From positions 511-64,510 of the forward strand of contig CAZYPU010000004.1 of assembly GCA_964649665.1 (NCBI GenBank): 64,000 nt of DNA, written 5' to 3'. The notes beneath the pieces were generated by a model that was not told the DNA's origin, ran no database searches, and worked only from the letters and a program-made list of their open reading frames with translations. Of this stretch, positions 9,938 to 63,841 are shown piece by piece. Every line of letters begins with the position of its first letter. The stretch's first letter is position 1. The stretch is from an uncultured Planctomycetia bacterium. GTDB lineage: Bacteria > Omnitrophota > Gorgyraeia > JABMRN01 > RBG-13-46-9. The translations under genes and the position numbers were made by a program.

Positions 9938-11194
9938 ATGCAGAATATCAATATCGAAAAATTGAAGGCAATGAACATGACCGAGCTAAATAAGATCGCC
10001 AGGGACCTCAAGGTTAACCAGATAAGCGGCCTCAAAAAGCAGGATCTAATTTTTAAAATTCTGCAGGGAAAGACCGAAAAAGAGGGGCTGATCTTCGGAG
10101 AAGGCGTTCTGGAGGTGCTCCCGGACGGTTTCGGCTTTTTAAGGAGCCCGAAATACAATTATCTTCCGTGCCCGGACGATATTTATATTTCGCCGTCGCA
10201 AATTAGAAAATTCAGCTTAAGGACGGGTGATACTGTGAGCGGACAGATCAGGCCGCCGAAGGAAAGCGAGAGGTATTTTGCGCTTCTAAAGGTGGAGGCG
10301 GTGAACTTCGAAAGGCCGGAAAACGCCAAAGACAAGATTCTTTTCGATAACCTGACGCCGCTGTACCCCAACGAAAGATATGTGCTGGAAACAACGCCGG
10401 AAGAGATTTCCATGAGGGTAATGGACCTTCTGGCGCCGGTGGGGAAGGGGCAGCGCGGGATGATTGTCGCCTCGCCCTACAGCGGAAAGACGGTGCTGCT
10501 GCAGAAATTCGCTAACAGCATAAGCACGAACTATCCCGATGTGATCCTGATGGTTCTTTTGATAGATGAAAGGCCGGAAGAGGTTACGGACATGATAAGG
10601 TCGGTGAAAGGCGAGGTAGTAAGCTCGACGTTTGATGAACCGGCCGAAAGACATACCCAGGTAGCCGAGATGGTGCTGGAAAAGGCAAAAAGACTTGTCG
10701 AACACAAAAAGGATGTGGTGATACTGCTGGACTCCATAACGCGTCTCGCCAGGGCCTATAACGCCGTAATGCCGCATTCCGGTAAAATACTTTCCGGCGG
10801 CGTGGACTCAAACGCCCTGCAAAAACCGAAGAGGTTTTTCGGGGCCGCGCGAAACATAGAAGAGGGCGGGTCGCTTACGATAATGGGAACTGCGCTCGTC
10901 GATACCGGCTCCCGCATGGATGACGTTATATTTGAGGAGTTCAAAGGAACGGGCAACATGGAGCTGCAGCTGGACAGGACTCTCTTTCAGAGGCGCATCT
11001 ACCCGGCCATTGACATCAAAAAATCCAACACCAGAAAAGAAGAGCTGCTTGTCGAGGATAACGAGCTGAAAAAGGTGTGGCTCATGAGAAAAGCCCTCAA
11101 TGACCTGAATTCCGTGGAAGCCATGGAGCTCCTGATAGGGAAGCTGGGAAAAACGGAAAGCAATAAGGAATTTCTAAAGTCACTGAACAAATGA
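9938..11194 (+). CDS. rho: transcription termination factor Rho
   Basis: Start placed at ATG 9938 (GGAGG 9 nt upstream); the ORF track starts at 9908. Rho N-terminal, RNA-binding and ATPase regions ([40 protein letters not shown]). Confidence 0.93.
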
Positions 11195-11197
11195 AAA

Positions 11198-11274
11198 CAC
11201 AGATGAGCACAGATAATGTAATCTGTGTTAATCTGTGAAAACTATAGTTTAACGGAAATCTGTGCCGATCTGTG
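11198..11274. repeat. array of six CACAGAT/ATCTGTG heptamers
   Basis: CACAGAT at 11198 and 11208. ATCTGTG at 11221, 11231, 11258 and 11268. The first four form a two-step hairpin. Confidence 0.7.
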
Positions 11275-11294: not shown

Positions 11295-11600
11295 ATGAAA
11301 GACAAAATACACCCCGATTATAAGGAAGCCACCATAGTTTGTGCCTGCGGGGAGGTAGTGCAGACACGGAGTACAAAGCAAAATATACATGTCGAAATCT
11401 GCTCGAAGTGCCACCCGTTCTTTACGGGCACGCAGAAATTCGTTGATTCCGCCGGAAGGGTCGACAAATTCAAGAAGAGATTCGAGAAGAAACGACCGAA
11501 GGAAGTCCCGAGCACCACAGCAAAAAGTACAGACCGTGAGGGGCGACCGAAGGAAAAGAAGCAAAAAAAGACAGCGGACGAAAATAAAAAGGATGTTTGA
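11295..11600 (+). CDS. rpmE: 50S ribosomal protein L31 (Zn-binding type) with K/E-rich C-terminal extension
   Basis: MKDKIHPDY...CACGE...[19 protein letters not shown]. The tail shares a motif with L3. Confidence 0.9.
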
Positions 11601-26633: not shown

Positions 26634-26709
26634 GCTAGCGTAGCTCAGCTGGTAGAGCACCTCACTTGTAATGAGGATGTCGTCAGTTCGACCCTGACCG
26701 CTAGCTCCA
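26634..26709 (+). tRNA. tRNA-Thr (anticodon UGU), CCA encoded
   Basis: GCTAGCGTAGCTCAGCTGGTAGAGCACCTCACTTGTAATGAGGATGTCGTCAGTTCGACCCTGACCGCTAGCTCCA. Starts directly after the nnrD stop codon. Confidence 0.93.
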
Positions 26710-26874
26710 ATTCCGCCTTAGGCGGAATTGATCCTGAAGCAATGAAGAAAATGCGATGAATAAGAGTATTTTCCGTTGCTATCGCAAAAATTAAGGTACT
26801 TCGGAATGGCAGATCCTCCCACAGGTCGGATTTGCGCCATTCATCAGTATCAAGATTTCTCAAAGTGAAATTTT

Positions 26875-26958
26875 GGGGAGATGCCGGAGCAGCTAAACGG
26901 ACCAGACTGTAAATCTGGCGGTCTTTGACCTACGGAGGTGCGAATCCTCCTCTCCCCA
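26875..26958 (+). tRNA. tRNA-Tyr (anticodon GUA), long variable arm
   Basis: GGGGAGATGCCGGAGC...CCAGACTGTAAATCTGG...GGAGGTGCGAATCCTCCTCTCCCCA. Confidence 0.92.
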
Positions 26959-27012
26959 CTCTATAAGGTGCGGCCTCGGAGAAAAAAGTGAGAAAAGATT
27001 TGAGCATGCTCG

Positions 27013-27104
27013 AGGACGAGAGCAGGGAGAAACTCGCGGGCGTAGCCCTTCGCGTGGCTGAGGCCACGCTCAGGACGAGAGCAGGGAGAAACTCGCGGGC
27101 GTAG
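27013..27104 (+). repeat. 33-nt direct repeat (27013-27045 and 27072-27104) that includes the first 10 nt of tRNA-Gly
   Basis: AGGACGAGAGCAGGGAGAAACTCGCGGGCGTAG occurs twice. The copies are separated by the hairpin GCGTGGC-TGAG-GCCACGC. Confidence 0.85.
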
Positions 27105-27165
27105 TTCAATGGTAGAACGGTAGCCTTCCAAGCTACACACGGGGGTTCGATTCCCCCCGCCCGCT
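27095..27165 (+). tRNA. tRNA-Gly (anticodon UCC)
   Basis: GCGGGCGTAGTTCAATGGTAGAACGGTAGCCTTCCAAGCTACACACGGGGGTTCGATTCCCCCCGCCCGCT. Confidence 0.92.
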
Positions 27166-27177
27166 CCGGAATAAATT

Positions 27178-31468: not shown

Positions 31469-31505
31469 CAGGACTCCCTACAGCCACTTGCCAGCGGCTC
31501 ACACA
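31469..31505. repeat. solo arm of the rod-like element family
   Basis: CAGGACTCCCTACAGCCACTTGCCAGCGGCTCACACA is near-identical to the reverse complement of 31750-31786. Confidence 0.7.
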
Positions 31506-31577
31506 ATCAGGGCAAGGTGCCTGGCACCTCAGGGCACCTCTCGCAAACTCTACCAAAGCTTTTGGGGATGTACTTTG

Positions 31578-31786
31578 CAGGACTCTCTTTGGTCATTTGC
31601 CAAGCGGCGAATGCTCTCGACCGTAGAAGTTCGCAATTTGCGAATCGGACATGCAGAGGAAGTCTCTGAGTTAAAGGTTAAAACTAACATACACACCTTC
31701 CGATTAGCAAATTGCAGAAATTCAAGGGAGAGAGCTTTACGCAATTTTTTGTGTGAGCCGCTGGCAAGTGACCAAAGGGAGTCCTG
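31578..31786. repeat. 209-nt rod-like palindromic element, copy A
   Basis: ~30-bp terminal stem (CAGGACTCTCTTTGGTCATTTGCCAAGCGGC / GCCGCTGGCAAGTGACCAAAGGGAGTCCTG). Conserved core motifs CGACCGTAGAA, AATTTGCGAATCGGA, TCCGATTAGCAAATTGCAGAAATTCAAGGGAGAGAGC. Confidence 0.8.
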
Positions 31787-31833: not shown

Positions 31834-31861
31834 TTGACAAAAAATTTATTTATGGTATAGT
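31834..31861 (+). promoter_or_regulatory. sigma70-type promoter upstream of the LAGLIDADG-like ORF / tRNA-Thr / tuf
   Basis: TTGACA (31834-31839), 16 nt spacer, TATAGT (31856-31861). Confidence 0.55.
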
Positions 31862-31914: not shown

Positions 31915-32586
31915 ATGCAACTACGCGATATCGTAGTAAGTTACGAAAAGGGAAATTCCATAAACGAGATAGCTTCCGCGTTCGGCCTCTCGACGAGGAA
32001 GATCAGGGGCATATTATCCACTAATAATATAGTCATGCGAAATCACAAAGAAGCCTCATACCTAAAAAACAACAAAGACGGCGACCCGTTCGACATATTG
32101 ACCGAACTTACGCCGGAAGAAGAGCACCTGAAAGCAATGGCGCTCGGGCTTTACCTTACGGAAGGAAACACAAAAAACAAAAATTCCGTACGCTTTTCCA
32201 ATTCGGACCCGGCGCTTGTAAAGATATTCGTTAAATTTTTAAAAGCTGTCTGTGGTGTTGAAAATGACAAGATAAGGATGTCGTTAATCGTGTATCCGGA
32301 TGTCCCGCAAAAAGCGGCAAGGGAGTACTGGGCGAATTTCCTGGGTCTTCCAATAATTCAGTTTACGAAAACAACCGTTTTAAAAAACAGGAGTAACCAC
32401 AGTTCAAAAAGACACTCGGAATTCGGCACCATTACTATATATGTGCACAATACAAAGCTCCTGGGTATCATAAAAGAGTGGGCGCGGGAATATGCCCATA
32501 TAGCTCAGTTGGTAGAGCACATCCATGGTAAGGATGAGGTCGTCGGTTCAACCCCGACTGTGGGCTCCGCTATTAAAAGGAGGTAA
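31915..32586 (+). CDS. HTH plus LAGLIDADG-like (homing-endonuclease-like) protein; the 3' end reads through tRNA-Thr
   Basis: N-terminal HTH ([22 protein letters not shown]). [13 protein letters not shown] followed by [18 protein letters not shown] resembles a single LAGLIDADG motif and core. There is no stop codon before the tRNA at 32494. Confidence 0.45.
32494..32566 (+). tRNA. tRNA-Thr (anticodon GGU)
   Basis: GCCCATATAGCTCAGTTGGTAGAGCACATCCATGGTAAGGATGAGGTCGTCGGTTCAACCCCGACTGTGGGCT. Lies 22 nt upstream of tuf. Confidence 0.92.
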
Positions 32587-32588
32587 AG

Positions 32589-33785
32589 ATGGCTAAAGCA
32601 AAATTTGAACGCACAAAGCCGCACGTAAATGTCGGCACAATAGGGCACATAGATCACGGAAAGACCTGCCTTACGAGCGCCATAACCCAGGTCCTCGCAT
32701 TAAAGGGCCAGTCAACCGCGAAAACCTATGCGGAAATCGCGAAAGGCGGAGCCGTAAGGGATAAGTCAAAGATTCTCACCATAGCGGTCGCGCACGTGGA
32801 ATACGAAACAGAAAAGCGCCATTACGCGCATATCGACTGCCCGGGCCACGCAGACTATATAAAGAACATGATAACGGGAGCGGCCCAGATGGACGGAGCG
32901 ATCCTTGTCGTATCGGCGGCCGACGGCCCGATGCCCCAGACAAGGGAGCACATTCTTCTTGCAAGGCAGGTAAATGTGCCCGCGATAGTAGTATTTTTAA
33001 ACAAGGTAGACCTCGTAGACGACAAGGAGCTGCTTGACCTTGTGGAGCTTGAAGTAAGGGAGCTTCTCACGAAGTACAAGTTCCCGGGAGAGAAAACACC
33101 CGTCGTAAAGGGAAGCGCGCTTAAAGCTATGCAGAAACCCGAAGACGCGGAAGCCGCAAAGCCCATATTCGAGCTCCTGAAAGCGGTAGACGATTTCATC
33201 CCTATCCCAAAAAGAGACATCGACAAACCTTTCTTAATGCCAATCGAAGACGTATTCTCAATCACCGGAAGGGGAACTGTCGGCACGGGCCGCGTGGAAA
33301 GGGGCCAGGTAAAAACGGGGGAAGAGATTGAAATCGTGGGTCTTAAAGACACAAAAAAAAGCATCGTAACAGGCGTTGAGATGTTCAGGAAGATCCTGGA
33401 CTCGGGCCAGGCAGGGGATAATATAGGAGTCCTCTTAAGAGGCGTTGAGAAAAAAGACCTCATGCGCGGACAGGTCCTCGCAAAGCCCGGAACCATAAAA
33501 CCGCATAAAAATTGCAAGGGCGAGGCCTACATCCTGACCAAAGAGGAAGGCGGCCGCCACACGCCGTTTTTTAACGGCTACAGGCCGCAGTTCTACTTCA
33601 GGACCACCGACGTAACCGGATCCGTCACGCTTCCCAAGGATGTCGAAATGGTTATGCCGGGTGACAACGTTACGGTAGAAATAAGCCTCATAGAGCCCAT
33701 CGCTATGGAAAAGGGTCTGAGGTTCGCTATACGCGAAGGCGGCCACACCGTCGGCGCGGGCGTAATAACGGAGATAAACGAGTAA
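32589..33785 (+). CDS. tuf: elongation factor Tu
   Basis: [26 protein letters not shown]. 398 aa. Confidence 0.97.
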
Positions 33786-34241: not shown

Positions 34242-34931
34242 ATGAACGGAATACTCGGAAAAAAAATAGGCATGACAAATATTTTTGACCAGGAGGGCCG
34301 CTTTGTCCCTGTGACGCTTATAGAAGCGGGCCCCTGTCTTGTCCTGGATACAAAGACGAAAGAAAGATGCGGGTACTCCGCCGTGATTTTGGGATATGGG
34401 CAAAAAAAGCCCGCACGGGTAAAAAAACCGCAAAAAAAATGGCCTGTCCGCGTTATAAAGGAAATAAGGATGGAGCCTCCCGCGGCCGTTAAGGCCGGCG
34501 ACAGGATCGGGGTAAACTTGTTCAAAAGCGGCGATTACGTGGACGTAACGGGAACTACTATCGGGAAGGGATTCCAGGGCGGCATGAAGCGATGGGGCTG
34601 GCGCGGAGGAAGAAAATCCCACGGCTCTATGTTTCACCGGGCACCGGGTTCTATCGGAGCCAGCTCCTATCCGTCAAGGGTACACAAGGGCAAGCACCTC
34701 CCCGGCCATATGGGCGCGGTCAAAAGGACAACCCAGAATTTAAAAATCATGAGCGTCGACGAAGAAAAAAATATACTTAGCGTAAAAGGGTCCGTGGCCG
34801 GTCACAGGGGAAGCTTCCTCGTAATAAAGAGCGCGAAGAAACGACCACAGGAAGTCCCGAGCACCACAATAAAAAATACAGACCGCGAGGGAAGGCCGCC
34901 GAAAGAAAGCGTTACATCCGTAAACCCGTAG
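34242..34931 (+). CDS. rplC: 50S ribosomal protein L3 with C-terminal extension
   Basis: MNGILGKKIGMTNIFD (ATG 34242; the ORF track uses GTG 34236). The tail KKRPQEVPSTTIKNTDREGRP is shared with L31. Confidence 0.92.
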   Translation: MNGILGKKIGMTNIFDQEGRFVPVTLIEAGPCLVLDTKTKERCGYSAVILGYGQKKPARVKKPQKKWPVRVIKEIRMEPPAAVKAGDRIGVNLFKSGDYVDVTGTTIGKGFQGGMKRWGWRGGRKSHGSMFHRAPGSIGASSYPSRVHKGKHLPGHMGAVKRTTQNLKIMSVDEEKNILSVKGSVAGHRGSFLVIKSAKKRPQEVPSTTIKNTDREGRPPKESVTSVNP

Positions 34932-48975: not shown

Positions 48976-49219
48976 ACAAGAAGAAGAAAGCCGGGGTTCT
49001 GTCTGCAAAAAAATTTTTCATCCACTCCTAATTCATGACCGTCTTTTACCTCGCTTTTTAGAGGGGATGGCGGAACTCGCCCCACACCCAATGGTGTGGG
49101 GCTCAAACAACCGCCATCCTTTTTGTATCAAAACTTGTTACAAAGAAAACCTCTAAAAATCTCGGATAAAAGACTAAAATTTTTCAATTGCATCCAGACC
49201 CCCGGCTTTCTTCTTCTTG
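48976..49219. repeat. 244-nt rod-like palindromic element downstream of rplQ
   Basis: Perfect 21-bp terminal inverted repeat ACAAGAAGAAGAAAGCCGGGG / CCCCGGCTTTCTTCTTCTTGT. Inner pairings TTTTTAGAGG/CCTCTAAAAA and GTCTTTTA/TAAAAGAC. Apical nested hairpin GGATGGCGG..CCCCACACC-CAAT-GGTGTGGGG..CCGCCATCC. Confidence 0.75.
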
Positions 49220-49315
49220 TAGCAGCGATGCCGCTTGGCAGGCATCGCCCGGAGGCTTATTCAACACCGCCTCCTGACTACTCCCATTCCCTTTCTTTTC
49301 TCTTCGTTAATAAGG

Positions 49316-49388
49316 CTAAGGTGCCTGGTTTACCGGAGGTGCCAGGCACCCCTGGTAAACTCATCTAAGGTGCCAGGCACCTCCGGTA
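49316..49388. repeat. cluster of GGTGCC(W)GGCACC palindromes
   Basis: CTAAGGTGCC at 49316 and 49366. GGTGCCAGGCACC at 49338 and 49369. 13-bp inverted repeat TACCGGAGGTGCC (49331) / GGCACCTCCGGTA (49376). Confidence 0.7.
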
Positions 49389-49512
49389 CTGAGCGTAGTC
49401 AAGGACCACAAAATTCGCCGGAAGGGCGCTTACTGCCGGATGTCGCTTCACTTTTCGCTTGTTTATACAATAATATTATGATATATTAGAAAGGCTATAC
49501 GGAGGAGAGCAT

Positions 49513-58918: not shown

Positions 58919-59054
58919 CGGCAGCTGACAGCAGGCGCCCTTCCGGCGAATTTTGTGGCTCGCTGCAATTGATGTGTTGAAGATTTCATTCACTCAATTG
59001 CGACGCTCGCGCACAAAATTTGTCGCCTCCAGGGCATCCTGCTGCCAGCTGCCG
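58919..59054. repeat. 136-nt long imperfect hairpin
   Basis: ~57-nt arms (CGGCAGCTGACAGCAGGCGCCC...GCAATTGA / TCAATTGC...CCTGCTGCCAGCTGCCG) with spaced mismatches and a 21-nt loop. Confidence 0.7.
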
Positions 59055-59138: not shown

Positions 59139-59621
59139 ATGCTAGAACAGATTACGAATTCGCTGGTGGCGTTTAACAAAGAGATCGCGGTGGTCGCCCT
59201 GGCGGCGATGCCGGTTTCAGAGCTGAGGGGCGCGATCCCACTCGGGCTGGCGATGGGTTTCTCACCGCTTAAAACCTATTTACTTGCGTTTTGCGGGAAT
59301 CTTTTGCCGGTCATACCGCTTCTATTTTTACTGCAGCCCATAACCAACAAACTTCGCCATATAAAGATATTCGAGAGATTCTTTAACTGGCTGTTCGAAA
59401 GGACAAGGAGAAAAGCGACGCTTGTGGAGAAATTCGAGGCGCTCGGCCTTATCCTGTTCGTAGCGATACCACTGCCCATAACCGGAGCGTGGACCGGATG
59501 CGTCGCTGCCACGCTTTTTAAAATACGGTTTCGTTACGCGTTCATCGCGATCGCGCTCGGCGTTTTTATTGCCGGATTTATTGTTTTGGGATTAAGTTTA
59601 GCGGGAAGGGCACTCCTGTGA
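59139..59621 (+). CDS. small integral membrane protein (COG2426-like, putative small multidrug export family)
   Basis: 160 aa, ~4 TM helices. PVSELRGAIPLG motif recalled from this family. Confidence 0.45.
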   Translation: MLEQITNSLVAFNKEIAVVALAAMPVSELRGAIPLGLAMGFSPLKTYLLAFCGNLLPVIPLLFLLQPITNKLRHIKIFERFFNWLFERTRRKATLVEKFEALGLILFVAIPLPITGAWTGCVAATLFKIRFRYAFIAIALGVFIAGFIVLGLSLAGRALL

Positions 59622-60133
59622 AAAAGGGCCTCGTTCAAATCTATACCGGTAACGGAAAAGGCAAGACAACAGCGGCACTCGGCCTTGCGTTAAGGGCCGC
59701 CGGCGCAGGGCTATCCGTTTATATATTGCAGTTTCTAAAAACCGCCGCTTACAGCGAAATGAAGGCGCTTAAAAAAGTAGAGAATATCAAGGCCGAACAA
59801 TGCGGCAGGGGATGCCTTATAAAAAGAAAGGCAAAAAAAATCGACATAGATTGCGCCGTAAAGGGCCTTATGCGCGCGCGAAAAATTATACTCTCGGGTA
59901 AACACGATATCGTCATACTCGACGAGGTAAACGTCGCGCTGCGGCTCGGTTTAATCAAATCCGGGGATATTATCGATATGATAAAACAGAAACCCCGCCA
60001 TGTGGAGCTTATTCTTACCGGAAGGTATTGCCCGAAAGTCCTTATGCAACGCGCCGATCTCGTAACGGAAATGCGGGAAGTAAAGCACCCCTACCGAAAA
60101 GGCCTGAAGGCGCGGCCGGGCATCGAATATTAA
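59618..60133 (+). CDS. cobO: ATP:cob(I)alamin adenosyltransferase (CobA/CobO/BtuR type)
   Basis: GLVQIYTGNGKGKTTAALGLALRAAG, ILDEVN, HPYRKG-type C-terminus. Confidence 0.85.
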   Translation: MKKGLVQIYTGNGKGKTTAALGLALRAAGAGLSVYILQFLKTAAYSEMKALKKVENIKAEQCGRGCLIKRKAKKIDIDCAVKGLMRARKIILSGKHDIVILDEVNVALRLGLIKSGDIIDMIKQKPRHVELILTGRYCPKVLMQRADLVTEMREVKHPYRKGLKARPGIEY

Positions 60134-60138
60134 AAATC

Positions 60139-60807
60139 ATGAAAGAAAAAGTGCTGCTTTCATGGAGCGGCGGCAAGGATAGCGCCTTTGCCCTTCACGA
60201 AGTCCTGAAAAACAAAAGGTTCGAAGTAGCGGCGCTTTTGCAGACAGTAACCCGCGACTACCGGCGTTCCAGCATGCACGGCGTGCGGCGTATTCTACTC
60301 AAGCGGCAGGCCCGCTCAGTGGGCATACCGCTGGAAGAAATACAGATTTCAAAAAACATCACTTCCGAAGAATACGCGAGGGTAATGAGAAAAGTCCTCA
60401 AAAAGCATCTCGCAGGCGGTATTTCATCGGTGGTTTTCGGGGATGTTTTTCTGGAGGACGTGAGGAAATACCGCGAAAAAAATCTTTCGGAACTGGGCAT
60501 GAAAGCCGTGTTCCCGATATGGCAAAGGGATAGCGCCCAACTCGCCCGCTCATTTATAAAGCTGGGATTTAAGGCGATTACCACATGTGTCGACGGAAAA
60601 TTTCTCGACAAAACATTTGTCGGCAGGCAGTTCGACGAACGGTTTCTGTCGGAGCTGCCCAAAAGCACCGACCCGTTGGGCGAAAACGGCGAATTCCACT
60701 CATTCGTATACGACGGCCCGCTCTTACGCGAAAGGGTCCGCTTTAAAAAAGGCGCGATCGTCCTGCGCGACGGGCGCTTCCACTACTGCGACCTCCTTCC
60801 GGAATAA
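60139..60807 (+). CDS. DUF71/COG2102 PP-loop ATP pyrophosphatase (Dph6/MJ0570-related), paralog 1
   Basis: Start placed at ATG 60139 (MKEKVLLSWSGGKDSAFAL); the ORF track starts at 60028 inside cobO. ENGEFHSFV motif. Confidence 0.75.
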   Translation: MKEKVLLSWSGGKDSAFALHEVLKNKRFEVAALLQTVTRDYRRSSMHGVRRILLKRQARSVGIPLEEIQISKNITSEEYARVMRKVLKKHLAGGISSVVFGDVFLEDVRKYREKNLSELGMKAVFPIWQRDSAQLARSFIKLGFKAITTCVDGKFLDKTFVGRQFDERFLSELPKSTDPLGENGEFHSFVYDGPLLRERVRFKKGAIVLRDGRFHYCDLLPE

Positions 60808-60888
60808 TTTTCATCGCCATTTATGTGTTAGTGCCTTGTGGCTAAGCAGAAGGAAGTGTTCCAGAGCTGCTTAAACCATAAGTAAGCT

Positions 60889-61097
60889 ATATAAGCCTCC
60901 GGGGGTACTTGCCGGCGGCTCACACAAAAAGTTGTGTAAAGCTCTCTCCCTCGAATTTCTGCAATTTGCTAATCGGAAGGTGTGAATATTAGCCTTCGTC
61001 CTCTTCGTAGTTTACCCCTGTATGTCCGATTCGCAAATTATGAAATTCTACGGTCGAGAGCATTCACCGCCTGGCAAGTACCCCCGGAGGCTTATAT
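60889..61097. repeat. 209-nt rod-like palindromic element, copy B1 (inverted relative to copy A)
   Basis: Terminal stem ATATAAGCCTCCGGGGGTACTTGCC / GGCAAGTACCCCCGGAGGCTTATAT. The reverse complement aligns with copy A across both conserved core blocks. Confidence 0.8.
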
Positions 61098-61118
61098 TAT
61101 CGTGGACTTTTATTTCCT

Positions 61119-61266
61119 AAGGGGACGTTTCACTTTGTCCTAACTCTTTATGTGGCAATGAGTTACGAGCGGTCGTTTTCCACTCTTTTACACCTTGCAA
61201 TCCGGAAAACGACGTGTTGTAACCCCTGTACTGACAACGAGTTATATCAAAGTGAAACGTCCCCTT
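61119..61266. repeat. 148-nt palindromic element: 19-bp outer stem enclosing three hairpins, followed by a T-run
   Basis: AAGGGGACGTTTCACTTTG / CAAAGTGAAACGTCCCCTT. Inner hairpins TAACTC..GAGTTA, GTCGTTTTCC..GGAAAACGAC, GTTGT..ACAAC. Confidence 0.75.
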
Positions 61267-61273
61267 TTTCTTT

Positions 61274-61478
61274 AAGACAGGATGAGGCGCAGGGCTCCGG
61301 CGAATATTTTCGACCGTAGAATTTAGTAATTTGCGAAATTGCAATACCAGAAAATGCCATGCAGCTCTGCTGCAGGGCCACTCCTTTTGTGCAATGAGCA
61401 AATTGCATAAATTCAAGGGAAAAAATCTTGGCATAATTTTTTATGCTGAGCCGGAGACCCTGCGCCTCATCCTGTCTT
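61274..61478. repeat. 205-nt rod-like palindromic element, copy B3 (divergent, same orientation as copy A)
   Basis: Terminal stem AAGACAGGATGAGGCGCAGGGCTCCGGC / GCCGGAGACCCTGCGCCTCATCCTGTCTT. Core CGACCGTAGAATTTAGTAATTTGCGAA and AGCAAATTGCATAAATTCAAGGGA. Confidence 0.8.
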
Positions 61479-61511
61479 TCCTGGTACAGATATCGCTCAA
61501 TACATTTTTTG

Positions 61512-61540
61512 TTGACAAATACGGGGGGATTTGATATTAT
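61512..61540 (+). promoter_or_regulatory. sigma70-type promoter for the cobalamin riboswitch / receptor transcript
   Basis: TTGACA (61512-61517), 17 nt spacer, TATTAT (61535-61540). Confidence 0.55.
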
Positions 61541-61564
61541 ACAACCGCTCTTTAACATTACGTT

Positions 61565-61729
61565 CTATACAGGTGCCCGTTGAGGGCTTGAAAAGGGAAG
61601 CTCGTTTAAATCGAGCGCGGTCCCGCCGCTGTAATCGGGGACGAAACCACAGTGAGCCACTTATCGCATTTCGCGATTGGGAAGGCGTGGAAGTAGAAGG
61701 ATCCGAGAGTCAGAAGACCTGCCTGTATA
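61565..61729 (+). promoter_or_regulatory. cobalamin (B12) riboswitch aptamer
   Basis: P1 TATACAGG/CCTGTATA. GGTGCC..AAAAGGGAAG. GCGCGGTCCCGCCGCTGTAATCGGGGA (consensus CCCGCCACUGU-like). B12 box GAGTCAGAAGACCTGCC at 61707-61723. Confidence 0.85.
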
Positions 61730-61776
61730 TTAAGGTGTCGCCGGAACACCGCATATAAGGGATGAAGAAAACGGGT

Positions 61777-61831: not shown

Positions 61832-63841
61832 TTGAAGAAAATATTTTTAATTTTGTTCGCGTGTTTCTTAAGCATCGGATTTGTTTTTGCCGAGGAGAAA
61901 GATGAAGAGAAAAGCCTTTTAGGTGATACAAAACTGGATAAAGTTATTAAAGCTTTAATCGACCCTATGGAAAAAGTGGTTTCTCCTATTATGGAATTAG
62001 GCACTATCGTCGTGACACCTACTAAAACTAAGGAAAAATTAGGCGCTCAGTCAAGCGCCGTCACCGTAATAGGAGAAACAGAATTCTATAGAGAAAAGGC
62101 GGATTACGTTAAGGATGTCTTGAAAAACGAAATGGGTTTGGATGTTGTGGAAAGCGGGGCGTTTACGGGGCAAACGTCGGTTTTTATGCGGGGGGCCAAC
62201 TCAAACCAGACGCTGGTTATGATCGATGGGGTAAAGGTATATGATCCCACTTCACCAAACGGGGCATTTAACCTCGCTCATTTGACGCTGGACAATCTTG
62301 AGCGAATCGAAATAGTGCGGGGCTCGCAAAGTACATTGTACGGCTCCGATGCAATGGGCGGCGTTATAAATATTATAACCAAGAAAGCGGAGAAAGCATT
62401 TTTTAACGGTTTTTTCGAAACAGGCGCGTTTTCGACATTCAGGGAAGGTTTTGACATGGGTGCGAAAACGCACGGATTCCACTACACCATAGGAGGATCT
62501 TTTGTCAAAAGCCGGGGCATATCCCAGGCGCAGGCTAAAAACAATAATCCCGAACTTGACGGATATGAACAATACGCTCTTTCGGCGAGAGTGGATTATG
62601 ATGTTAACGAAGACCTTACGGTGGGGGGAACGTTCAGAAATACCTCTACACTTTTTCATTATGATCAGGGGAGGCGTGATGATGCCGATTTGTACCAGAA
62701 AGATTTCCAGACGCTTTTTACACAATATGTTGAGCACAAACCGGTTGATTTTTATAGTTATTACATAAAGCTGGGGTGGATGAATACGTTTCGAAGAGAC
62801 GCTGACGGAAATAGCGGCGGCGCCACAGACTATCTGCGAGACTGGTATAAAGGTTATGAGTTCAGGCTCGATTACAGGAACAATATTCACCTGTTCGACG
62901 TAGACACCTTTACCATCGGTTACGAGTTTACCAAGGAAATTGGCGATTCCTATTATTTCGTAGCGTGGGGTCCGGGCGTTGCGCAGAACAGCGAAAGCGA
63001 CATGCCCAAAGTTTTTTCAAGGAACCACGCGCTCTATCTACAAAATAGGCTTAACTTTCGCGATCGGTTAACGGCGACTCAGGGCATGAGGATAGATTGC
63101 CACTCTCTTGCCGGGACACACATAACTTACAAGGTGGATGGCTCCTATCTTTTTCCTACAGGAACAAAGGTAAGGGGAGGATGGGCAACTGGTTTTAAAG
63201 CGCCGACGCTTTATCAGCTCAATGCCACTTTGGTATTGCCCCAATGGGGGTGGTTTGGCTTCGGCGGCGGAAACCCCAATCTCGAACCCGAAACAAGCAA
63301 TTCTTATGAAATCGGCCTGGACCAGTACGCTTTCGGGGAAAAGCTTTTGTTACACGCAACTTACTTCCATTACATGTTTCACAGCCTGATAGGTACGACC
63401 ATGGACGCGAGGTTCAATGTTTCGCAATATCGAAATCTGGGCAAGGCCCATTCGCACGGCATTGAATGCGGAACGAAATTTAAGCCACTGGATAATTTCG
63501 AAGCGAGGTTTTCCTATACCTATGATTACACCAAGGATTACAGTACCGACAGGCCTTTGCTCCGAAGACCTCAGCATAAATTTAAAATAAATACCTATTG
63601 GGAAATAGTCCCAAAGTGGAATGTGAACCTCGAAATCCGATATAGCGGCTTACGCTATGATAGTAATGTTGACAAAATGAAGCCCTATGCAGTTGTTGAT
63701 TTTAATACCGACTACAACCTACTAAAAAATCTAAACGTTTATTTAAAGGTCGCCAACTTGTTTGATAAGCGCTACGAAGAGGTAAGGGGTTACGGAACAA
63801 GTCCTTTCGCCGTATATGTAGGTACAAAAGCTGAATTTTAA
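61832..63841 (+). CDS. btuB: TonB-dependent outer-membrane receptor, BtuB-like
   Basis: TTG start. Signal peptide. Plug-domain motifs (IVVTPTK, VFMRGANSNQTLVMIDGVKVYD, IEIVRGSQSTLYGSDAMGGVINIIT). C-terminal Phe. Lies downstream of the B12 riboswitch. Confidence 0.85.
   Translation: MKKIFLILFACFLSIGFVFAEEKDEEKSLLGDTKLDKVIKALIDPMEKVVSPIMELGTIVVTPTKTKEKLGAQSSAVTVIGETEFYREKADYVKDVLKNEMGLDVVESGAFTGQTSVFMRGANSNQTLVMIDGVKVYDPTSPNGAFNLAHLTLDNLERIEIVRGSQSTLYGSDAMGGVINIITKKAEKAFFNGFFETGAFSTFREGFDMGAKTHGFHYTIGGSFVKSRGISQAQAKNNNPELDGYEQYALSARVDYDVNEDLTVGGTFRNTSTLFHYDQGRRDDADLYQKDFQTLFTQYVEHKPVDFYSYYIKLGWMNTFRRDADGNSGGATDYLRDWYKGYEFRLDYRNNIHLFDVDTFTIGYEFTKEIGDSYYFVAWGPGVAQNSESDMPKVFSRNHALYLQNRLNFRDRLTATQGMRIDCHSLAGTHITYKVDGSYLFPTGTKVRGGWATGFKAPTLYQLNATLVLPQWGWFGFGGGNPNLEPETSNSYEIGLDQYAFGEKLLLHATYFHYMFHSLIGTTMDARFNVSQYRNLGKAHSHGIECGTKFKPLDNFEARFSYTYDYTKDYSTDRPLLRRPQHKFKINTYWEIVPKWNVNLEIRYSGLRYDSNVDKMKPYAVVDFNTDYNLLKNLNVYLKVANLFDKRYEEVRGYGTSPFAVYVGTKAEF

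Follow-up and report, generated by a model that had tools for sequence, protein, structure and literature searches.

A palindromic repeat family with a covarying, strand-specific fold in a Candidatus Omnitrophota-like genome

Repetitive extragenic palindromes (REPs) with their RAYT enzymes, the ends of IS200/IS605 elements and attC sites work through a strand-specific form of single-stranded DNA (ssDNA). In size, the REP unit is a palindrome of 20 to 40 bp, and the REPIN is an inverted doublet of about 100 nt (PMC3733652). An unpaired GTAG lies beside the imperfect, bulged palindrome of REPs, the folded ssDNA is read by TnpA(REP), and REPs have been found in the PVC (Planctomycetes-Verrucomicrobia-Chlamydiae) superphylum, mostly downstream of genes and in both orientations (PMC3733652, PMC8266576). 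Here we describe a 205-nt unit, copy B3, located at positions 61274 to 61478 of a 64,000-nucleotide stretch of DNA (contig CAZYPU010000004.1, positions 511 to 64,510; hereafter, the window), together with its relatives, the B3 family. The host is Candidatus Omnitrophota-like, and the repeat family is previously undescribed and structurally unusual within the bacterial interspersed palindromic repeats. The non-coding DNA of this phylum is essentially uncharted because the phylum is uncultured, and our search of the literature on Omnitrophota palindromic repeats found nothing relevant.

In this family, compensatory changes preserve the base pairs, one and the same strand retains wobble pairs and folds best in every copy, and copies are gained, lost, rearranged and partly homogenized. 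On balance, we favor the reading that B3 is a copy of a low-copy, interspersed, non-coding palindromic repeat, similar to REPs, REPINs and bacterial interspersed mosaic elements (BIMEs), to the enterobacterial repetitive intergenic consensus (ERIC) or to miniature inverted-repeat transposable elements (MITEs), and that its folded ssDNA would be the ligand of a trans-acting protein. The family is a concrete, alignable repeat in which both the secondary structure and the folding strand are constrained. Since covariation and G.U bias are routinely taken as proof of an RNA, their presence on an element that acts like mobile DNA makes it a clean test case.

Structure, covariation and folding strand of the unit

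Each unit, of 205 to 235 nt across the family, consists of an outer stem, a three-way junction, a long arm (P2) and a small A/T-rich hairpin (P3) placed before the 3' outer arm. In B3, all of whose features lie on the plus strand, the outer stem is formed by the 5' arm AAGACAGGATGAGGCGCAGGGCTCCGGC (61274 to 61301) and the 3' arm GCCGGAGACCCTGCGCCTCATCCTGTCTT (61450 to 61478), which are perfectly complementary over 21 nt, or over 28 with one bulged A. The 5' strand of helix P2a, ATTTTC at 61306 to 61311, pairs with AAAAAT at 61421 to 61426 (GCTCTC and GAGAGC, respectively, in A and B1, the other two copies in the window). Two internal-loop segments then face each other, namely, GACCGTA (GA, CC, GTA) at 61312 to 61318, identical in 11 of the 12 aligned sequences, and the invariant AAGGGA ((A/G)A, GG, GA) at 61415 to 61420. 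Their apposition gives, on the plus strand only, a GA/GA tandem mismatch, a CC/GG pair (with GG at 61417 to 61418, paired in 12 of 12 sequences) and a GUA/RA loop, in which the unpaired GTA(G) sits at the foot of the conserved helix. The latter joins GAATTT-AGT-AATTTGC (61319 to 61334) to GCAAATT-GCAT-AAATTC (61398 to 61414); only the middle three positions of its 5' strand vary, and they covary with 61405, 61406 and 61408 (CG/AU, GC/AU, CG/UG/UA), the conserved bulged A at 61407 lying among them. The variable distal arm (61335 to 61397) begins with a GA/GA mismatch pair (61335 to 61336 with 61396 to 61397), continues with the helix ATTGCA/TGCAAT (61338 to 61343 with 61390 to 61395) and bears an apical hairpin (61356 to 61378). 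Finally, P3 (GGCATAA-TTTT-TTATGCT) occupies 61430 to 61447 and is followed by a conserved GAGCC that opens the outer stem.

Two of our alignments (A2 and A3) define a near-invariant 5' strand, TC-GA-CC-GTA-GAATTT-nnn-AATTTGC-GA, and a near-invariant 3' strand, GA-GCAAATT-nnAn-AAATTC-(A/G)A-GG-GA. The long arm accordingly reads, in order, as a GA/GA tandem mismatch, CC/GG, the GUA/RA loop, a 16-bp helix with the bulged A, and a second G.A/A.G pair. Elsewhere in the unit it is the pairing that is kept: the outer stem (20 to 33 bp) differs in sequence between subfamilies and is paired in every one, and the distal arm is wholly different in sequence among the three subfamilies described below and retains its pairing, as exemplified by GAAATTGCA/TGCAATGA in B3, which corresponds to GAAGTTGCA/TGCAACGA in the copy at locus L005. 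A K-turn reading of the internal loop was discarded, the G.A strand order and the 3-nt bulge being unlike those of a canonical K-turn. The loop may rather resemble a tandem G.A plus a loop-E-like element, with a GUA/RA part possibly similar to the bulged-G/loop-E module. Coding potential was also discarded: open reading frames (ORFs) of 46 to 105 amino acids overlap B3, but the apex is wholly different between subfamilies and no ORF is conserved.

An earlier note, made from the letters of the window alone, had proposed compensatory base changes between B3 and copies A and B1. The arms of A and B1 pair as it described, with GCTCTC followed by GACCGTAGAA on the left and TTC(A/G)AGGGA followed by GAGAGC on the right. 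For B3 (ATTTTC followed by GACCGTAGAA on the left, TTCAAGGGA followed by AAAAAT on the right), the proposed pairing holds, but the right arm had been read one A short: it is G+AAAAAA+T, with six A rather than five, so that either the closing C faces an A, the GA/GA loop being kept, or one A is bulged. Between A/B1 and B3, helix P2a shows three double changes (G-C to A-T, C-G to T-A and C-G to T-A). The small hairpin covaries as had been noticed (ACGCAA/TTGTGT in A, ACACAA/TTGTGT in B1 and GCATAA/TTATGC in B3), and that of copy A does need one G.T pair on the plus strand.

The check that the note had asked for, an alignment with RNAalifold, was run on 10 sequences and returned 41 predicted pairs, 17 of them with compensatory changes. 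Furthermore, 34 pairs placed by hand, and restricted to unambiguously aligned columns, were scored in 12 sequences from six assemblies. Paired states fill 95.3% of the cells, and both sides change in 12 of the 34 pairs (38 cells), a level of covariation reached in 0 of 500 shuffles; slid controls, with the partners moved by one to three columns, gave only one to three both-side-changed pairs. Among the pairs of alignment A3, 39/245 and 41/243 occur as UA or CG, the two sides having changed together in five and three sequences, respectively, while in P3 the pairs 255/264 (UA or CG, five double changes) and 257/262 covary and copy A presents its G.U at 254/265. The differences between B3 and A/B1 are thus true compensatory changes in a conserved secondary structure, and they go beyond chance. 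Given the relatedness of the sequences and their division into three subfamilies, we consider the covariation evidence good, not overwhelming; its direction is unambiguous. Covariation cannot tell an RNA from a folded ssDNA.

A consistent asymmetry between the two strands accompanies the covariation. In minimum free energy (MFE) folds, the outer stems of the distinct copies contain, on the element strand, about 14 G.U (G.T) wobbles versus a single isolated A.C mismatch; two more C.A oppositions occur in the core, at the closing pair of B3 and at column 63/221 of the copy at locus L017. In nine of nine distinct copies, the complement folds less stably than the element strand, whether RNA or DNA parameters are used. 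Copy B1, for instance, folds at -110.3 kcal/mol and its complement at -104.4 kcal/mol, and B3 folds at -110.5 kcal/mol (z = -13.5); the window copies all adopt the same fold shape, with z-scores from -10 to -13.5. Copies placed antisense to their neighbors keep the same strand asymmetry. The wobble excess and the uniform difference in stability therefore generalize the single G.T hint from which the note had started, and they support the strand in the A/B3 orientation as the one that must fold.

The note had gone on to suggest an RNA read in that orientation, and this part found no support: for the inference from a folding strand to an RNA, neither Rfam nor promoters, terminators, flanks or orientation gave any backing. 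At the gathering score, only a cobalamin riboswitch and tRNAs pass in the whole window, none of them over the elements, and at E<=10 the region 60800 to 61560 gave only chance-level matches to CRISPR-DR41 and snoRNAs (E 1.6 to 4.2). None of the copies examined showed a conserved promoter or terminator belonging to the element, and the only good promoters nearby, at 31834 and 61512, belong to downstream genes. The flanks are unrelated from copy to copy, with nothing conserved outside the hairpin. As for orientation relative to the flanking genes, about five copies are sense and about six antisense (B1, L001, L003b, L005, the B1 variant of L009 and one decayed copy, that of L015).

Copies, subfamilies and turnover

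The window contains the left-arm motif CGACCGTAGAA.TT...AATTTGC three times, whereas shuffles predict 0.00 occurrences. The ends of B3 are exactly those of the stretch that it has in common with its paralogue at L007 (6990 to 7197, 96% identity), beyond which the flanks are unrelated. Copies A (31578 to 31786, plus strand) and B1 (60889 to 61097, minus strand) are complete units of the A/B1 subfamily and are 84% identical over 174 nt. Copy A lies between the stop codon of a gene for an 856-amino-acid protein and the promoter at 31834, and B1 is antisense to its flanking genes, with outer arms of 25 nt without a mismatch. Upstream of copy A, we could observe an extra arm of 38 nt (31469 to 31506, plus strand), 89% complementary to the 3' arm of A at 31749 to 31786, including half of P3, which resembles the 3' end of another copy, inverted and truncated. 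In the MFE fold of 31469 to 31786, this extra arm displaces the proper 5' arm, and copy A thus has two alternative closing stems.

Outside the window, nine more copies were counted in other assemblies. A scan of species-representative genomes found four copies in one metagenome-assembled genome (MAG) labelled "uncultured Planctomycetia bacterium" (L001 to L003), and a metagenome scan found four true copies (L005, L007, L008 and L009). Five further matches of the latter scan (L006 and L010 to L013) were set aside as chance, since they show only the left motif without the right arm. Loci reached via neighboring proteins added the copy in L017, the variant of B1 in L009 and the decayed copy in L015. 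Viral contigs, plasmids and phages were searched and yielded no copy, and a phage or plasmid origin was dropped on this ground. The copy counts (at least four loci for the species of the window, with three in 64 kb, and four motif matches in the whole MAG) are lower bounds, because the metagenome scan missed L014 and L018 (JGI contigs Ga0212124_10002618 and Ga0208325_1000233), which bear the exact pattern yet were not returned. As regards the host, the Dph6-like gene beside B3 has its closest named homologue in Candidatus Omnitrophota, and L017 belongs to an Omnitrophota MAG, a relative at 74% amino acid identity.

Three subfamilies can be distinguished: A/B1; B3 with L005, L007 and L017; and the MAG copies. 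The termini AAGAC(A/C)GGATG(A/G)GGC are common to B3, L007 and L017 and bear no relation to those of A/B1 or the MAG copies. A side observation concerns the B1-like copy of L009 (1 to 262, minus strand), which has altered core loops (GACAATAG on the left and CTACGGA on the right) and a far longer apex, which over 41 nt shares 95% identity with that of the L017 copy. A GTAG-like tag appears on both of its arms (ATAG on one, CTAC on the other), which makes the region more nearly palindromic.

Comparison with related genomes revealed turnover. In a relative of 81% protein identity with full synteny, the gap between the Dph6-like gene and the TonB-dependent receptor gene measures 355 nt and holds only the promoter and the riboswitch, compared to 1025 nt with B1, B2 (an unrelated hairpin) and B3 in the window. 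The same relative is also without copy A, though the downstream promoter is conserved, and has a decayed copy elsewhere. Orthologous intergenic regions are empty in L015/L016 and in L020, which indicates insertion polymorphism between related genomes. At the same place, the 74% relative (L017) has a different set, formed by a hairpin of the repeat C family (see below) and a family copy. A strain represented by L009, 98% identical across B2 and B3, presents an extra C-family repeat, the variant B1 and a different downstream flank that starts 14 nt after B3. No target-site duplication (direct repeat) was found at any of the nine distinct copies.

Exchange between paralogues was evident as well. 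L008 differs from the window at four positions in 2840 nt, all inside B3, and three of the four match the paralogue L007 from the same sample. The pair 61279/61473 is A-T in the window, C.T in L008, A.G in L009 and C-G in L007; because the differences of L008 are confined to B3 and mostly match L007, these half-compensated states are most simply a mosaic of paralogue exchange.

Two further observations were made at these loci. In L015, 10672 to 10686, at an "empty" site, reads GTGCCGGATGAGACA straight after a stop codon, with CCGGATGAG in common with the terminus of B3, L007 and L017; this could be the solo-arm footprint of a lost copy, or chance. In L017, the 65 nt that follow the family copy (11158 to 11222, at the contig end) repeat the upstream flank in reverse complement (ATCGG...CCGAT, followed by an inverted C repeat), and represent either a true giant palindrome centered on the element or a turn-back of the assembler at a 30-bp perfect stem. 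Such hairpins break assemblies and mark rearrangement hot spots in MAGs, as exemplified by L017 and L018, where contigs end, and by the rearrangement in the flank of L009.

Comparison with described systems and competing explanations

With REPs, REPINs and BIMEs, the B3 family shares an intergenic location, mostly just downstream of genes, either orientation and the lack of target-site duplication, and the head-to-head cluster of palindromic units B1-B2-B3 resembles a BIME. Like REPs, it shows strand-specific folding. In REPs, an unpaired GTAG (or CGTC) tag marks one end of the stem-loop; the invariant GACCGTAG of the B3 family recalls it in leaving GTA unpaired where a conserved helix with a bulged A begins, but this tag is internal to a larger hairpin. 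The ERIC/IRU, Correia (NEMIS) and RUP/BOX repeats are similar in that they are imperfect intergenic palindromes of 100 to 250 nt, found in both orientations, with presence/absence variation, subfamilies and folding when co-transcribed. In MITE-like elements, the terminal inverted repeats are conserved and a short duplication of the target, for example TA, is usual, whereas the B3 family lacks a duplication at nine copies, has termini conserved only in the B3 subfamily and is most conserved in an internal, asymmetric module. The ends of IS200/IS605 and attC sites are likewise folded one-strand hairpins in which structure, bulges and extrahelical bases are kept while the stem sequence varies; however, the B3 family has no nearby tnpA/tnpB or intI, no R''/R' (RYYYAAC/GTTRRRY) boxes and no cassette array. 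Moreover, different from attC sites, its ends are AAGAC...GTCTT or other sequences and its copies are isolated or inverted, and different from IS200/IS605, the unit is one complex hairpin rather than separate left-end and right-end hairpins.

If the favored reading of B3 as a folded-ssDNA repeat is correct, the single-stranded hairpin of the element strand would be the thing under selection, as the form bound by a putative trans-acting protein through which the element is copied or maintained. The ligand form would most likely be ssDNA, exposed in replication or repair, and by analogy with HUH/Y1 enzymes (RAYT, the TnpA of IS200/IS605), recognition may involve a GTAG-tagged, bulged hairpin. 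Co-transcribed copies such as A and B3 would also form very stable hairpins in 3' untranslated regions, possibly as a side effect, as proposed for REPs. We consider ssDNA likelier than RNA because the strand preference is intrinsic, being the same in copies sense or antisense to their neighbors, and the element has no promoter of its own; the ssDNA form accounts for the data at least as well as an RNA does. Should a cognate enzyme be found, the GTAG and bulged-helix core would extend the recognition principle of REP/RAYT to a much larger substrate with a three-way junction.

Several points weigh against this reading. The sample is small, with about nine independent sequences in three subfamilies. 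REPs have a cognate HUH/Y1 gene (PF01797), typically with repeats on its flanks, whereas the genes by nine B3-family copies are of the housekeeping type, and no HUH/Y1 or other transposase gene was seen beside any copy, a statement that covers the neighbors only. The unit, at 205 to 235 nt with a three-way junction, falls outside the size of both REPs and REPINs and exceeds a REP five- to tenfold in length, and its GTAG lies inside a larger hairpin and not at the end of the element. The ends of REPINs are conserved, while the outer arms of the B3 family are variable. REPs number tens to hundreds per genome, whereas the copy number here looks low, at least four per genome and not hundreds, as far as fragments tell. 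Furthermore, the invariant loops (tandem G.A, GUA/RA loop and bulged A) are purine-rich on one strand only, as is typical of protein-binding RNA motifs, and RNA tolerates G.U more than DNA tolerates G.T. Finally, a simple model in which the whole hairpin transposes does not explain the MAG copies, whose interiors match at about 100% along some 190 nt while the outer 17 to 19 bp differ at about 40% of positions, with a sharp boundary between the two.

Some of these points would be natural for a family of structured non-coding RNA (ncRNA) genes in the A/B3 orientation, with loops that bind a protein or make tertiary contacts and a closing stem that protects the ends or serves as an RNase III site, an explanation that we regard as rather unlikely but by no means negligible. 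Covariation in every helix, the G.U excess with one strand folding better in all copies, and the invariant tandem G.A, GUA/RA loop and conserved bulged A all fit with it, as does a core kept among organisms of 74 to 81% protein identity and in a differently labelled MAG. A unit of about 200 nt with an end-to-end closing stem and G/A-rich conserved internal loops also recalls 6S RNA, domain IV of the signal recognition particle (SRP) RNA and the retron msr-msd; however, different from these long-hairpin ncRNAs, the B3 family is multi-copy, occurs in both orientations and has neither an Rfam match at E<=10 nor a promoter or terminator, and it lacks the large central bubble of 6S RNA and an adjoining reverse transcriptase gene as in retrons. 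It also speaks against an RNA gene that nothing is conserved outside the hairpin, that the only evident transcription would read half of the copies in antisense, and that presence/absence, rearrangement, decay and paralogue exchange are unusual for a functional RNA gene, the more so as adjacent, unrelated hairpin repeats show the same lifestyle. In contrast, it seems very improbable that the unit is a DNA palindrome without any single-strand function, in which template switching inside quasi-palindromes, or gene conversion among arms and among copies, keeps the arms complementary and compensation is a by-product. The nearly perfect outer stems (21 to 25 nt without mismatch), the mosaic sharing of variants among paralogues, with the half-compensated states as paralogue alleles, and the several unrelated long palindromes in the genome would all suit such a process, but strand-symmetric events predict neither about 14 G.T versus one A.C nor same-strand folding in nine of nine copies, and asymmetric internal loops would tend to vanish, yet they are the most conserved part across subfamilies and organisms.

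The contrast within the MAG copies suggests either the insertion of a core into pre-existing palindromes or a conversion limited to the interior. According to the former, the conserved interior would be the mobile unit, inserting into terminators, REP-like hairpins or other repeats, and the outer stems would be target DNA. L001 and L003a have the same interior, TGAGCAGCC...GGCTG.GA., along about 190 nt, with the change at the flanking arms noted above; the left boundary always reads ...TTG | TGAG... and the right one ...GA(G/A) | CAA..., all MAG outer arms ending in TTG and restarting with CAA; the inner part of repeat C is found with its outer stem (window and L017) and without the same outer stem (L009); and the repeats are nested and clustered. 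Conversely, the outermost 15 nt of the stem travel with the unit in B3, L007 and L017, at three loci in two species, and a search of only about 330 kb of DNA gave no empty palindrome whose arms match. We think this explanation unlikely. It is also possible to hypothesize, with little confidence, a strand-specific structured module that is either the site for an enzyme placing the core into the centers of palindromes, which would be a new, hairpin-targeted mobility, or a multi-copy Omnitrophota RNA that spreads like a repeat. If true, either form of this module would be the first structured repeat family defined for Omnitrophota.

Other hairpin repeats and genomic surroundings

Copies of the B3 family lie clustered among other hairpin repeats, those of families B2, C and D. 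The B2 hairpin (61119 to 61266, 148 nt), between B1 and B3, has a 19-bp perfect outer stem; since it is without the family core and a 77%-identical piece occurs in L007 (4531 to 4608), we consider it a separate repeat family. Repeat C (48976 to 49220, 245 nt, z = -13.8) recurs with its inner part in L009 (297 to 430) with different flanks, and as a whole unit, including its 33-nt outer arms, at a different locus in L017 (10678 to 10915); it has the same architecture as the B3 family, a conserved interior with an optional outer stem. Repeat D (58919 to 59054, 136 nt) lies between the PCMT and small-exporter genes and has a related arm 9.5 kb away (49406 to 49445) and another in L015 (8869 to 8909); at its position, L017 has a gene for a 420-amino-acid helix-turn-helix (HTH)/HNH-repeat protein instead. 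Short REP-like palindromes, GGTGCC(T/A)GGCACC, are present three in a row at 49318 to 49390 and again at 31515 to 31535, the latter within the 72-nt segment that separates the extra arm of copy A from its proper 5' arm. The window also holds short GGTGCCWGGCACC palindromes.

The neighbors of the family copies are unrelated, housekeeping-type genes: the Dph6-like gene and the B12-riboswitch/TonB-dependent receptor, the 856-amino-acid protein of unknown function and tuf, and, at other loci, cysS, asd, an MscS-like channel, DUF58/BatD and GGDEF/LptD-like genes. Near B3, the cobalamin riboswitch (113 bits, 61554 to 61740) lies downstream of a near-consensus promoter (61512 to 61540) and upstream of the TonB-dependent receptor gene (61832 to 63841), and a corrinoid adenosyltransferase gene (59618 to 60133) is located just upstream. 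Around copy A, a cluster that is usually intact, from tRNA-Thr/Tyr/Gly (26634 to 27167) to tRNA-Thr-tuf (32494 to 33785), is split by an insert that comprises a HAMP-GGDEF gene, the gene of the 856-amino-acid protein, copy A and a small HTH-like ORF; the 856-amino-acid protein has no Pfam domain and very few homologues (three at E<=1e-50). Finally, a 67-nt direct repeat, 85% identical, is found 23 kb apart in the window (11483 to 11549 and 34832 to 34898), probably in coding sequence, and also matches L014 (4050 to 4126).

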